IMG/VR virus record: IMGVR_UViG_2788500396_000001
Span: 859 to 64,858 of that record
From: a virus
Lineage: Duplodnaviria > Heunggongvirae > Uroviricota > Caudoviricetes
Strand: one strand, 5' to 3'
DNA: 64,000 nucleotides
Shown: in pieces, positions 8,263 through 10,443 of the stretch
Layout: the number at the start of each line of letters is the position of its first letter
Position numbering within the stretch: the stretch's first letter is position 1
Program-made: the position numbers and the translations under genes
The notes under the pieces: model-generated
What the model saw: only the letters and a program-made list of their open reading frames with translations
Databases searched by the model: none
What the model was told of the DNA's origin: nothing

Positions 8263-10443
8263 TCAAGTTTGTCCAGAAGCATATTGATAAAACAGCTCCC
8301 TCAAAGCAATGATGTTTTTTGGGCCAGGCAAATCTTTCCCAATGGTTTTATACCATCCATAAAAAAGATTCTCTTCTTTTGAGATCAAAGAAGAGGTGTA
8401 TTTGTAATAACCAAATTGGTTCACCGTGTCAACCACATTCCGCATGTGTTTCCACATATTATAGTAATGTAGTTTTAGCTTAACCATAAACCCATCAAAG
8501 TCTTCAAGCACAAATCCCTCGATGTAAGATCCTCTATACATATAGTCTGCCGCTGTCACTTCACTATACCAATCGCAGAATGACGGCCAGTCTGTGATAA
8601 TATATGCGAGGTGCTTGCATTCAAACTTCAGCATATTTGATACATAATCAACATCAAAGTATGGGTGCTTTTTAAATGTTGGATCATTTTCAACAATATC
8701 AAGCAAAACAAGTTTTTTGCTCTCATATCTGATAATATGAGGATCATTCTCAGGATCAATACACTCAAATACCAGAGTTACATTATTGTTTTTGAGATAT
8801 TCTTTAACTGCGTCAACATCCTGAACTTGTTGATAAAAAATCTCTCGTAAATTGTTTGCATATGGTCCAGTTGGGGTAGACTTGCTTGTGATGAATAAAT
8901 CACCTGTTTTATGGTCGTAAGATACGAGCCCCAAGAACCCATTTTCCTTGACGTATGCCATAACAGGGAATCTCAATACGTTCTTCAGCACGCCGAACTT
9001 GGTCTCTGATCTTTCGTTGATATTGAAAAATTTCTCGTATGCTCTTGCGACAACTTTATTGCTCTCAGTATCAATGAATAACCCACGAGCCTTTATGGTT
9101 TGCTCATCCCAAGCCCTATCATAGAATGCTTTCGGCGTAAAGTTAAATGAAGAGATATGGTCGAATCTTTTTTCCTGAATGTACTTGTTTTGTCTCATCG
9201 ACTCTACAAGTGAAGTAACATCAACGGCATCAACATTGTTCTTCTTTTTGATGTTTAGGTCTCTGAATACAGTGTTGCGGGTTTCGATTGTATGAAACCC
9301 AGATTCATCAAGCGTAACTACCCGCAAAGATCCACCGAACTCGACAGAATCTTCGAGGTCAAAACATCTCTTGGATAAATGCGTAGGCAACGATTTGGTG
9401 TTTCTGTGGCCAAAGACTTGATATACATTATCTGGCATTACTTCATCGAATGTTTTTGCAACAATCTCATAGTCATCGTACTGGCCAGTTCCTTTGATCA
9501 TCTCTTCTGTTGGAACGAGAGATAGATTTTCCGGAATTAAACTCAGGCCACCATGCGTCGCTAAAACAATCTTGTCATGAAAGCGATAATAAGCACATTG
9601 TGCAAATTTTCTGTATAAGATGCGAGCATCTTTTTCAGAAATTCCAGCATCAATTAACTCTTGCTTGGTTCTCTTTTCGAACTCTTGTGATTTTGCTGGC
9701 TTCCCTTTCCCGTAGCAGTAGATCCATCTCTCATGGTTTCCTTCCAAGAGAAGAACATTCGGCATTTCGAGTATGGAACAGAGAAATTTGACAACCTCTC
9801 CATTCTCCAGTCCTCGGTCAATATAGTCACCCGTGAAGATGTAAAACTCATCCGCATGAATTTCTCCCCCTAAATAGTTGTTTAAAACCGTATAGCAGCC
9901 ATGAATATCACCAATGTGGTGAATCTTCTTATATTGAGATAAGTCCATCGGCTTATACCAGATTGACTGCAGCTGATCAGGGGCAATAACCTTGATGCCG
10001 GATGGTATCTTCTGGGTGGCAAATCTGGAATAAATCCTCTCGATCACATCGTCTGGGACTTGCTTATACTGTGGACGCATAGCATTCTGTTTCTTGCATA
10101 CATCGATTGGAATGTTGGTCATATCAACAAGTACAATTCTGTACCGATACTCGCTGGCAAGCGTTTTGTACCGATTCATTTCTGATGTTTTTGAGTTTGT
10201 AGCATCGATAACGGTAAGCTCTCCTCGTTGCATCCGTGCTTCCAGTAACTGGAAAAGGATTTCCCAGACAGTTTTATCGTTACTTTGGCTGATGCCATAA
10301 GATCCATCTACTCCTAAGATAGGGCTTTGACACATCAGTCTAAGATCGTCTGCGGAAAGAGAATAGGGCTTTAAGCCATTATTCTCAATCCACGTAGTCT
10401 TGCCGCATCCAGGAGCACCGCGCAGTAAAATTAAAACTCTCAT
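8263..10443 (-). CDS. Pnkp-like RNA-repair enzyme: 5'-kinase + calcineurin-type 2',3'-phosphatase + ligase-like adenylyltransferase
   Basis: Three domains are read from the translation:
- N-terminal P-loop LLRGAPGCGKTTW.
- Central metallophosphoesterase motifs GDIHGC, GDYIDRG and EGNHE.
- C-terminal nucleotidyltransferase motif YVKENGFLG (KxNG).

This is the same domain order as bacterial Pnkp. The ATG at 10443 has a GAGGT RBS. Confidence 0.7.
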   Translation of the reverse strand: MRVLILLRGAPGCGKTTWIENNGLKPYSLSADDLRLMCQSPILGVDGSYGISQSNDKTVWEILFQLLEARMQRGELTVIDATNSKTSEMNRYKTLASEYRYRIVLVDMTNIPIDVCKKQNAMRPQYKQVPDDVIERIYSRFATQKIPSGIKVIAPDQLQSIWYKPMDLSQYKKIHHIGDIHGCYTVLNNYLGGEIHADEFYIFTGDYIDRGLENGEVVKFLCSILEMPNVLLLEGNHERWIYCYGKGKPAKSQEFEKRTKQELIDAGISEKDARILYRKFAQCAYYRFHDKIVLATHGGLSLIPENLSLVPTEEMIKGTGQYDDYEIVAKTFDEVMPDNVYQVFGHRNTKSLPTHLSKRCFDLEDSVEFGGSLRVVTLDESGFHTIETRNTVFRDLNIKKKNNVDAVDVTSLVESMRQNKYIQEKRFDHISSFNFTPKAFYDRAWDEQTIKARGLFIDTESNKVVARAYEKFFNINERSETKFGVLKNVLRFPVMAYVKENGFLGLVSYDHKTGDLFITSKSTPTGPYANNLREIFYQQVQDVDAVKEYLKNNNVTLVFECIDPENDPHIIRYESKKLVLLDIVENDPTFKKHPYFDVDYVSNMLKFECKHLAYIITDWPSFCDWYSEVTAADYMYRGSYIEGFVLEDFDGFMVKLKLHYYNMWKHMRNVVDTVNQFGYYKYTSSLISKEENLFYGWYKTIGKDLPGPKNIIALRELFYQYASGQT

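Follow-up and report, generated by a model that had tools for sequence, protein, structure and literature searches.

A gene in the window (the whole stretch of 64,000 nucleotides of viral DNA analysed here) encodes a 726-residue protein, in which a P-loop kinase, a binuclear metallophosphoesterase and a lysine-adenylyltransferase ligase are joined in a single chain. This three-domain make-up agrees with the preliminary description of the DNA, and the catalytic residues of all three domains are intact. According to its domains, the protein is probably a phage trifunctional RNA heal-and-seal enzyme, which would act without a partner protein on tRNA cut by host anticodon nucleases. Repairing RNA is the classic means by which phages answer tRNA-cleaving immunity, and new defence systems that target tRNA are still being discovered. 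The gene is a candidate anti-defence gene against anticodon nucleases.

The open reading frame has exactly the boundaries given before, and all the motifs quoted with it are found in the translation: GAPGCGKTT at residues 9–17, GDIHGC at 178–183, GDYIDRG at 205–211, GNHE at 235–238 and KENG at 499–502. A GAGG Shine-Dalgarno sequence stands ahead of the ATG at 10443, which itself begins 8 nt past the stop codon of the upstream gene. A longer open reading frame from the ATG at 10494 was rejected as the start, because the homologues measure 724–732 residues. An identical protein with the same gene call was found on a 34-kb metagenomic contig. The features are listed in Table 1.

Table 1. Coordinates in the window of the predicted repair gene, its domains and the tRNA-directed genes
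Feature	Position	Strand	Extent or basis
Predicted trifunctional RNA repair protein gene	8263..10443	(-)	726 aa; stop codon 8263-8265; translation
P-loop polynucleotide 5'-OH kinase domain	9994..10443	(-)	Residues 1-150
Binuclear metallophosphoesterase domain (2',3'-cyclic phosphodiesterase / phosphomonoesterase)	9259..9966	(-)	Residues 160-395
ATP-dependent RNA ligase adenylyltransferase domain, Rnl1-type N-subdomain	8470..9219	(-)	Residues 409-658; Pfam RNA_lig_T4_1
All-helical C-domain, homologous to Trl1-LIG ('Rnl6') C-domain	8266..8469	(-)	Residues 659-726
Array of 12 phage tRNA genes	13118..16469	(-)	ARAGORN; context: tRNA supply
HNH/NUMOD1 homing endonuclease gene interrupting the tRNA array	15187-15600		Pfam NUMOD1/HNH_3
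CCA-adding enzyme (tRNA nucleotidyltransferase with HD domain)	18367..19722	(-)	Pfam PolyA_pol 9.5e-38, tRNA_NucTran2_2 3e-17, HD 7e-8
RlaP (RNA-ligase-associated Pol-beta nucleotidyltransferase)	19697..20773	(-)	Pfam PF10127 4.9e-19; same call on source contig
Thg1-like 3'-5' nucleotidyltransferase (tRNA 5'-end repair)	32520..33371	(-)	Pfam Thg1 3.6e-29; PHROG 4717 1.2e-95; context

The catalytic residues were mapped onto those defined experimentally in CthPnk (PMC3902929), the CthPnkp phosphatase (PMC3675462) and CtTrl1-LIG/T4 Rnl1 (PMC6379707), and the mapped residues of the three domains are conserved across 136 diverse relatives. The kinase and phosphatase halves are nearest to Clostridium thermocellum Pnkp (CthPnkp). 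In the N-terminal kinase domain, the equivalents of CthPnk Lys21, Ser22, Asp38 and Arg41 are all present. K15/T16 are predicted to form the P-loop, D32 to be the general base, R35 and T82 to make up the acceptor site, and R123/K127 to belong to the lid. In the central phosphoesterase, Asp187, His189, Asp233, Arg237, Asn263, His264, His323 and His376 of CthPnkp are all matched (D179, H181, D206, R210, N236, H237, H297 and H346), and E368 may correspond to CthPnkp Asp392. Substitutions at His189 abolish the monoesterase of CthPnkp (PMC3675462). The equivalent metal ligand is Gln in 22 of the 136 relatives, and the window protein keeps His. As H181 is kept, the phosphoesterase probably removes the monoester that results from opening a cyclic phosphate, too.

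The C-terminal nucleotidyltransferase noticed earlier is indeed an adenylyltransferase ligase domain. Pfam PF09511 (RNA_lig_T4_1) matches it with 8e-39 and 134.3 bits (gathering threshold 28.3) over profile positions 1–227 of 227, and hhalign aligns it with T4 Rnl1 over T4 residues 32–248 only, with a probability of 96.8. The ligase-domain residues are R453 and K471/F472 (the equivalents of Arg54/Lys75/Phe76 of the Rnl1-type N-subdomain), motif I K499-E-N-G (8938–8949), motif Ia K521, motif III E560, H569, motif IV E642-G-F-V and motif V K655/K657; they are invariant in 136 of 136 relatives. K499 aligns with K148, the nucleophile of CtTrl1, in whose place the K148M crystal (6n0t) has Met. The module is aligned with fungal Trl1-LIG from end to end, including the 'Rnl6' C-domain, in which W664-K665-x-x-R668 (8440–8454) corresponds to Y333-R334-x-x-R337 of CtTrl1, and I711..L714-R715..F718 is the counterpart of 'IIKLRNDF'. 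By profile and alignment, the module is of the Rnl1/Trl1 type (PF09511) and not of the Hen1-dependent Rnl4 type. A stand-alone form of the same module occurs in phages (PHROG 21952, 5e-47), which fits a self-sufficient ligase.

This assignment bears on the lack of Hen1, which the preliminary description had pointed out; in bacterial Pnkp systems, Hen1 is the RNA 2'-O-methyltransferase by which the ligase is activated. About 65 ORFs, among them all those of 190 aa or more, were scanned with Pfam; neither Hen1 nor an RNA methyltransferase came up, and the sole methyltransferase in the window is a C5 DNA methylase (6457–7611). The flanks of nine related loci likewise gave neither. Because the ligase is of the Rnl1/Trl1 type rather than Rnl4, the absence of Hen1 is expected and is no anomaly; a self-contained heal-and-seal enzyme would account for Hen1 being unneeded.

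The predicted substrates, end chemistry and biological role of the 726-residue protein are as follows. Host ribotoxins (anticodon nucleases and other metal-independent RNases) would cut tRNA, leaving a 2',3'-cyclic phosphate and a 5'-OH. The N-terminal kinase, using K15/T16, D32 and R35, would move an NTP phosphate onto the 5'-OH. The Mn2+-type binuclear phosphoesterase would open the cyclic phosphate, and the monoester would probably be removed as well, giving 2'-OH/3'-OH. The ligase would then react with ATP at K499 to form ligase-AMP, the AMP would be passed to the 5'-PO4, and the ends would be joined; the Trl1-type C-domain (W664/K665/R668) together with H569 may position the 3' end. Such an enzyme would be the functional equivalent of T4 Pnkp plus Rnl1 in a single chain, in which the healing half resembles CthPnkp and the sealing half Trl1-LIG. 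With the tRNA-upkeep genes of the phage (RlaP, the CCA-adding enzyme, the Thg1-like enzyme and the 12 tRNAs), it may form a kit for counter-defence, directed at immune systems that target tRNA.

The DNA of the window is that of a phage, containing genes for a ribonucleotide reductase (RNR) with an intein, ThyA, DHFR and dUTPase as well as the tRNAs, and the gene is phage-borne and belongs to a family that is very large among phages. PHROG 8238 ("RNA ligase") is matched with 1.3e-218, residues 1–722 of the protein being aligned on profile positions 1–733 of 737. Of the clusters formed at 50% identity, more than 1000 belong to the family with E <= 1e-30, and its members are found in Staphylococcus Twort-like phages, Brochothrix A9 and SPbeta-like phages. 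The family is thus abundant, and its carriers include therapeutic Staphylococcus phages and widespread gut prophages. The nearest relatives of the window protein are 93–95% identical. Megablast with the gene against 50,697 phage records gave no match, and relatives were found at the protein level only. Databases name the family only "RNA ligase", "phosphodiesterase" or "hypothetical protein", and a literature search for a biochemical study of the fusion gave genome-annotation mentions only; the survey likeliest to treat such an architecture (Burroughs & Aravind 2016, NAR 44:8525) lay outside its scope. The activities and substrate of the family are predicted from homology. The phage is uncultured, and the host anticodon nuclease that it would face is putative.

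RNA-repair companions in the window were overlooked in the preliminary description. RlaP (for its biochemistry, see PMC12776372) may be a companion that would put back the nucleotides missing from the 3' ends of damaged RNA, and only the shared strand and proximity suggest its functional link to the ligase. The CCA-adding enzyme, whose gene overlaps that of RlaP by 26 nt, may also be a companion of the ligase. These two genes and the tRNA array lie 3–10 kb from the ligase gene, and a relative with 94% identity lacks them at the equivalent place, so they do not form an obligatory operon with it. RlaP, the CCA-adding enzyme, the Thg1-like enzyme and the 12 tRNA genes are likelier companions than the vWA and HD proteins, which had been suggested as partners. 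Outside the closest clade (at least 64% identity), the vWA gene does not adjoin the enzyme gene, and the vWA family is distributed otherwise, in Streptomyces, Microbacterium and Pseudomonas phages; vWA was therefore rejected as a partner. HD was rejected because its position is not conserved.

The heal-and-seal reading has to be weighed against a pathway like that of fungal Trl1. There, the phosphoesterase would act mainly as a cyclic phosphodiesterase leaving 3'-OH/2'-PO4 ends, the ligase would prefer or require the 2'-PO4, bound by H569/K665/R668, and the junction made would carry a 2'-PO4, which a Tpt1/KptA-type enzyme would take off. The triad and the C-domain have been described for the fungal tRNA ligase, where they confer the 2'-PO4 dependence, and the kinetoplastid ligase is a suspected member of the same class (PMC11404444, PMC12440814). 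The Rnl6 features are found in the phage protein, that is, an all-helical C-domain appended to an Rnl1-like adenylyltransferase, and the His-Arg-Arg triad with Lys for one Arg. The fungal residues His227, Arg334 and Arg337 correspond to H569 (136/136), K665 (Lys in 133 sequences, Arg in 3) and R668 (133/136), and the triad is near-invariant. In the hhalign comparison, T4 Rnl1 has neither the triad His nor the Trl1-type C-domain. The Gln at the His189 equivalent in some relatives also favours this pathway, given the loss of monoesterase in CthPnkp. The window protein, however, retains H181, R210 and H237, which are needed for the CthPnkp monoesterase. Moreover, plant Trl1 requires the 2'-PO4 although it lacks these arginines (PMC12440814), so the triad is an imperfect predictor, and the basic residues could merely hold the 3'-terminal nucleotide. 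A fungal-type 2'-PO4-binding triad in the ligase sits awkwardly with a phosphatase predicted to strip the 2'-phosphate.

A KptA/Tpt1 partner was sought and rejected. None is present in the window, and the phage KptA genes (98 records) occur mostly in phage groups other than those of most fusion carriers. RtcB and KptA are encoded by the C. difficile phage whose RlaP is the closest, and the 20 kb around that RlaP gene on either side hold no homologue of the fusion. A weak Macro-domain match at 33693–34181 was considered as a clue to the Tpt1 pathway and set aside, as there is no Tpt1. On balance, we consider the Trl1-like course of the reaction unlikely. It is equally doubtful that the phage enzymes are true Rnl6 (Trl1-type) ligases that seal 3'-OH,2'-PO4 ends via H569/K665/R668, which would be a fungal-style pathway in bacteria. 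If this were true, it would provide a natural substrate for bacterial and phage Tpt1/KptA enzymes, whose role in taxa without yeast-like splicing is called unexplained in PMC6097658, and the tRNA ligase domain of eukaryotes might have come from a phage relative. A functional pocket would bear on what bacterial Tpt1 does and on how eukaryotic tRNA ligase arose; with a pocket that merely holds the 3' nucleotide, the enzyme would belong to a known class as an ordinary member.

Quite improbable, in our estimate, is a different main job for the protein, such as mending nicked or damaged ends of phage DNA, processing of tRNA transcripts made by the phage, undoing damage by its own MazF-like RNase, or structural moonlighting like that of T4 gp63 in tail-fibre attachment. 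The gene is placed among genes of nucleotide and DNA metabolism, and CthPnk, crystallized in complexes with DNA oligonucleotides, phosphorylates DNA 5'-OH ends too, as does T4 Pnk (PMC3902929). T4 Rnl1 is annotated as a catalyst of tail-fibre attachment, and a MazF/PemK toxin gene is present in the window and in SPbeta-like relatives. Against these points, the characterised ligases of the Rnl1/Trl1 clade are all RNA-specific, the companion genes are tRNA-directed, and the MazF gene lies in a separate, higher-GC island with TnpB and integrase.

A bacterial Pnkp/Hen1-type enzyme that has lost Hen1, with a ligase that acts alone or needs the vWA or HD protein nearby for its activation, is very improbable, and the family tests already speak against most of it. 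In its favour, the kinase and phosphatase domains are nearest to CthPnkp, and a vWA gene stands immediately upstream, both in the window and in relatives that share 94% and 64% identity. The protein, however, is not a member of the bacterial Pnkp family: the score against TIGR04075 (bacter_Pnkp) is 73 bits, the cut-off being 750, with model positions 10–417 of 851 aligned (the healing half only, the ligase half of the model being unmatched), and its ligase half belongs to a different clade. The vWA gene does not adjoin the enzyme gene in SPbeta-like prophages, Goe11, KKP_3916, Twort or A9, and in phiPsa374, where the vWA family also occurs, no enzyme homologue lies within 6 kb on either side. 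HD is about 6 kb off in some relatives, and the closest one lacks it.

The predicted self-contained heal-and-seal enzyme was compared with the known systems. In the T4 pathway, Pnkp and Rnl1 are two polypeptides, whereas one is used here. T4 Pnkp has a DxDxT/HAD acylphosphatase in place of the binuclear metallophosphoesterase, and T4 Rnl1 has a tRNA-recognition C-domain in place of the Trl1-type C-domain; the score against TIGR02308 (T4 RnlA equivalog) is 43.6 bits, and the cut-off is 242.25. Bacterial Pnkp-Hen1 (CthPnkp) has an Rnl4 ligase, is encoded in a chromosomal operon and has a model length of about 851, whereas the present enzyme has an Rnl1/Trl1 ligase, is phage-borne and has 726 residues. 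Fungal Trl1 has the order LIG-KIN-CPD, which is reversed here to KIN-Pase-LIG. Its 2H cyclic phosphodiesterase is replaced by the metallophosphoesterase, with no 2H domain, the kinase is CthPnk-like unlike that of fungal Trl1, and the carrier is a prokaryotic virus. In the ligase, Arg334 of fungal Trl1 is Lys, Arg305 of motif IV is Glu in most members, and His241 of motif IIIa is Leu. In contrast, Twort ORF008, Brochothrix A9 gp147 and the SPbeta-like 'RNA ligase' have the same architecture over the full length, with 37–45% identity over 99% of the length. No structural difference from the members of PHROG 8238 was found, and the window protein is a gut-metagenome member of that family.

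The open reading frame at 8263-10443 is real, and its coordinates in the preliminary description were exact. According to the translation, the stop codon lies at 8263-8265. A GAGG ribosome-binding site stands before the ATG at 10443, which follows the stop codon of the upstream gene by 8 nt. An in-frame ATG at 10494 was rejected as the start because close homologues measure 724-732 residues. The motifs GAPGCGKTT, GDIHGC, GDYIDRG and GNHE were confirmed, and KxNG reads KENG. The three-domain architecture (kinase, phosphoesterase and C-terminal nucleotidyltransferase) is borne out by Pfam, all matches being well above threshold. 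The AlphaFold model has a pLDDT of 88.

Features of the window and mapped residues of the fusion protein (CthPnkp, Clostridium thermocellum Pnkp; CtTrl1, C. thermophilum tRNA ligase)
Feature	Position	Strand	Details
Ribonucleotide reductase large subunit	938-4348	-	1136 aa; intein-split
Fusion protein	8263-10443	-	726 aa
AAA_33	residues 4-141		Pfam E 1e-19
Metallophos	residues 173-303		Pfam E 1e-12
RNA_lig_T4_1	residues 451-661		Pfam E 8e-39; full 227-position profile covered
P-loop kinase	K15/T16, D32, R35, T82, R123/K127		CthPnkp Lys21/Ser22, Asp38, Arg41, Thr80, Arg120/Arg123 (PMC3902929)
Phosphatase	D179, H181, D206, R210, N236, H237, H297, H346		CthPnkp Asp187, His189, Asp233, Arg237, Asn263, His264, His323, His376 (PMC3675462)
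Ligase N-subdomain	R453, K471/F472		CtTrl1 Arg99, Lys120/Phe121
Ligase motif I	K499, N501		CtTrl1 Lys148 (adenylylation nucleophile; Met in K148M crystal), Asn150
Ligase motif Ia	K521		CtTrl1 Lys169
Ligase motif III	E560		CtTrl1 Glu218
Ligase motif IV	E642		CtTrl1 Glu300
Ligase motif V	K655/K657		CtTrl1 Lys323/Lys325
vWA gene	10736-11407		directly upstream of fusion
Sak-like single-strand annealing protein	11698-12105	-	135 aa
HD protein	12102-12959
HNH/NUMOD1 homing endonuclease	15187-15600		interrupts tRNA array
tRNA-Ile	15802-15892	-	anticodon UAU; 91 nt; ARAGORN
CCA-adding enzyme with HD domain	18367-19722	-	same strand as fusion
RlaP nucleotidyltransferase	19697-20773	-	PF10127; same strand as fusion
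Two stand-alone calcineurin-like metallophosphoesterases	21804-22736, 51244-51906	-	PHROG 1649; Pfam 3e-23
Thg1-like 3'-5' polymerase / tRNA-His guanylyltransferase	32520-33371	-	PHROG 4717, 1e-95
Thg1-like and Macro-domain genes	32520-34181	-	Macro: PHROG 335 'phosphatase' 6e-39; Pfam Macro weak, 3.8e-4
Island	40043-42415	-	IS605 OrfB/TnpB (Cas12f-like TNB domain), tyrosine integrase, MazF/PemK toxin (3e-35)
Stand-alone DUF4121, DUF6551, LPD34, DUF932	46281-47189, 53245-55952	-	DUF4121 5e-52; LPD34 1e-79; DUF932 4e-57

The healing half resembles bacterial Pnkp. The NCBIfam model bacter_Pnkp (TIGR04075) aligns at model positions 10-417, corresponding to the kinase and phosphatase, and all experimentally defined kinase and phosphatase residues of CthPnkp have counterparts. 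In an alignment of 136 sequences (the query and 135 cluster representatives 38-52% identical to it), the mapped positions are kept in 132-136 sequences, four more variable ones aside. Position 82 is Thr in 117, position 127 has Lys in 102 sequences and Arg in another 17, and position 16 is Ser or Thr in 131. The fourth, H181 (9901-9903), equivalent to the metal ligand His189 of CthPnkp, is replaced by Gln in 22. Substitutions of His189 abolish the monoesterase activity, H189A and H189D keep the Mn-dependent diesterase, and the product of H189D is a 2'-PO4 (PMC3675462). Judging from the alignment, the Gln variants may represent natural variation in 3'-end chemistry.

The sealing half does not fit the bacterial-Pnkp-type identity proposed previously. 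TIGR04075 gives 73 bits where its cut-off is 750, and the ligase half of the model is unmatched. PF09511 is the sole ligase family of Pfam matching the protein, and PHROG 21952 (5e-47) is the phage stand-alone form of the module. Using phmmer, the Trl1 ligase domains of C. glabrata (9qw7, 8.5e-12) and C. thermophilum (6n0v, 2e-7) were detected, and T4 Rnl1 was not recovered at E <= 10. A profile from ten diverse family members matched C. glabrata Trl1 at 1.9e-30 and the CtTrl1 ligase domain at 6e-23 (residues 93-398 of 407 aligned), whereas the alignment with T4 Rnl1 (1.7e-9) stops just past motif V, and that by hhalign covers residues 32-248 only. Foldseek gave TM scores of 0.66-0.68 to the fungal Trl1 ligase domain and 0.53 to T4 Rnl1. 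Roughly 60 residues, the C-terminal helical domain, align with Trl1 and have no T4 Rnl1 counterpart. In Trl1 this domain was called unique and is the basis of the "Rnl6" clade (Banerjee et al.; PMC6379707). Across the 136 sequences, the residues mapped onto CtTrl1 show little or no variation.

Hen1 works with the Rnl4-type ligase found in bacterial Pnkp; ligases of the Rnl1/Trl1 type do not require it. Thus, its absence is expected here, and the anomaly supposed in the preliminary description dissolves, which leaves the system of less interest than was thought. The absence itself holds: neither Hen1 nor another RNA methyltransferase was found in the 64-kb window, nor in the flanks of nine related loci. 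Ends healed by CthPnkp are sealed by T4 Rnl1 without any other factor (PMC1920235).

Neither the vWA nor the HD protein, suggested as helpers of the ligase, behaves as a partner, since adjacency is not conserved. The vWA gene is directly upstream of the fusion also in a 94% and a 64% identical relative. It does not occupy this position in the SPbeta-like prophages of Flintibacter and relatives, nor in Goe11, KKP_3916, Twort and A9. Its family comes mainly from Streptomyces, Microbacterium and Pseudomonas phages, and no fusion homologue lies within 6 kb on either side of the phiPsa374 vWA gene. In SPbeta-like relatives the HD protein is encoded about 6 kb downstream of the ligase. Near the ligase of the 94% relative (locus L004) it was not found, and tblastn with the window HD protein gave no match there. 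At L004, one 293-aa ORF (7865-8746) stands in for the HD (272-285 aa) and Sak (135 aa) genes, which are separate in the window. The Sak-like protein looks truncated or chimeric; just residues 3-66 match the N-terminal 70 of 152 Sak profile positions. Upstream of the ligase, L004 carries Gad2 where the window has Sak, HD and tRNA genes; this Gad2 (anti-Gabija) gene (5341-6369) is about 4 kb away.

In the best-supported reading, the fusion protein works autonomously, healing and sealing RNA cut by metal-independent RNases. The kinase would place a phosphate onto the 5'-OH, the 2',3'-cyclic phosphate would be opened and then removed, and sealing with ATP would proceed via K499-AMP and AppRNA. What was observed are the identities of the domains, their folds and their residues. 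By analogy with the biochemistry of T4 Pnkp/Rnl1 and CthPnkp, substrates, end chemistry and an anti-defence role are proposed.

A Trl1-like, 2'-phosphate-dependent pathway in this phage family is improbable. The fungal ligase domain needs a 2'-PO4, a requirement conferred by His227, Arg334 and Arg337, which hold sulfate in the crystals and whose mutation slows RNA adenylylation 60- to 420-fold (PMC11404444, PMC12440814). The aligned positions are H569 (136/136), K665 (Lys in 133, Arg in 3) and R668 (133/136), and W664 stands in place of Tyr333 in 135. According to hhalign, T4 Rnl1 has Ile at the position of H569 and lacks a counterpart of the WKxxR segment. The triad, an unexpected feature, permits such a pathway but does not establish one. 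Four observations speak against it: H181, R210 and H237, which CthPnkp needs for 2'-phosphate removal, are kept in the fusion, no KptA/Tpt1 was found in the window, phage KptA genes occur mostly in lineages without the fusion, and plant Trl1 requires 2'-PO4 without these arginines. The Trl1-type C-domain and the triad lend themselves to a concrete and cheap experiment, and the interest of the system is therefore not low.

The window also carries tRNA-directed genes. The genes for RlaP and the CCA-adding enzyme, absent from the preliminary description, share 26 nt, an overlap suggestive of translational coupling. RlaP was named from its linkage to RNA ligases, and was recently shown to put one or two nucleotides on damaged RNA 3' ends (PMC12776372). 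A Macro-domain protein gene is next upstream of the Thg1-like gene. The tRNA array comprises 12 genes by ARAGORN on the strand of the fusion. At the variable-arm position its tRNA-Ile contains about 20 nt, unusual in a class I tRNA; this could be an insertion, or the tRNA could be mis-typed. RlaP, the CCA-adding enzyme, the Thg1-like protein and the tRNA array are together read as a kit maintaining functional tRNA. These genes and the ligase form no obligatory operon, since in the 94% relative replication genes occupy the position of the RlaP, CCA and tRNA genes. In Clostridioides phage AR1086-1, whose RlaP is the closest, the repair kit is a different one (RtcB, KptA and NrnB), and up to 20 kb from the RlaP gene there is no three-domain homologue. 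Modules for RNA repair appear to be mixed and matched among phages.

The window is a phage genome. Nearly every gene is on the minus strand, PHROG-typed phage proteins are encoded, and dUTPase, guanylate-type kinase, DHFR, thymidylate synthase, C5 DNA methylase and SleB-type cell-wall hydrolase genes are present. The ribonucleotide reductase intein (Intein_splicing, LAGLIDADG_3, Hom_end) occupies roughly residues 156-515, whereas the 772-aa L004 orthologue has no intein hit on record; the DNA polymerase III alpha gene of L004 shows a faint intein match. The phage has three metallophosphoesterase domains, including that of the fusion. DUF4121, DUF6551, LPD34 and DUF932 are domains typical of polyvalent anti-defence proteins in phages and conjugative elements. 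The island has a higher GC content (0.52 versus about 0.42). The repair enzyme would act on exactly the kind of ends, 2',3'-cyclic phosphate and 5'-OH, that MazF-type RNases generate; SPbeta-like relatives also have PemK genes, about 4 kb upstream of the fusion.

An identical fusion protein was found on a 34-kb metagenomic contig, and 93-95% identical ones on contigs reaching 118 kb. PHROG 8238 ("RNA ligase") matches the whole protein (E 1.3e-218). By tblastn, 113 of 50,697 phage records matched with at least 80% query coverage, including SPbeta-like Bacillus phages (45% identity), Alicyclobacillus phage KKP_3916, Staphylococcus Twort-like and Kayvirus phages (Twort ORF008) and Brochothrix A9 gp147. 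The homologues are named "RNA ligase", "tRNA ligase", "putative phosphodiesterase" or "hypothetical protein". An exhaustive HMMER scan over 1.84 billion cluster representatives gave 5160 matches at E <= 1e-3 and 1035 at E <= 1e-30; the best 150 of the 5160 are nearly all full-length three-domain proteins of about 720-760 aa. For one relative (P0069), the index of the assembly collection lists 690 blocks. According to these counts, the architecture is common and catalogued, and no one-off. In the literature searched, outside which lies the most relevant comparative survey, that of Burroughs & Aravind in 2016, we found neither a biochemical study of the family nor a paper tying the Rnl6 clade to phages. 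Phage RNA repair is a long-known kind of system and this family is already catalogued; the CthPnkp-like healing half joined to a Trl1-like sealing half is a variant of that kind.
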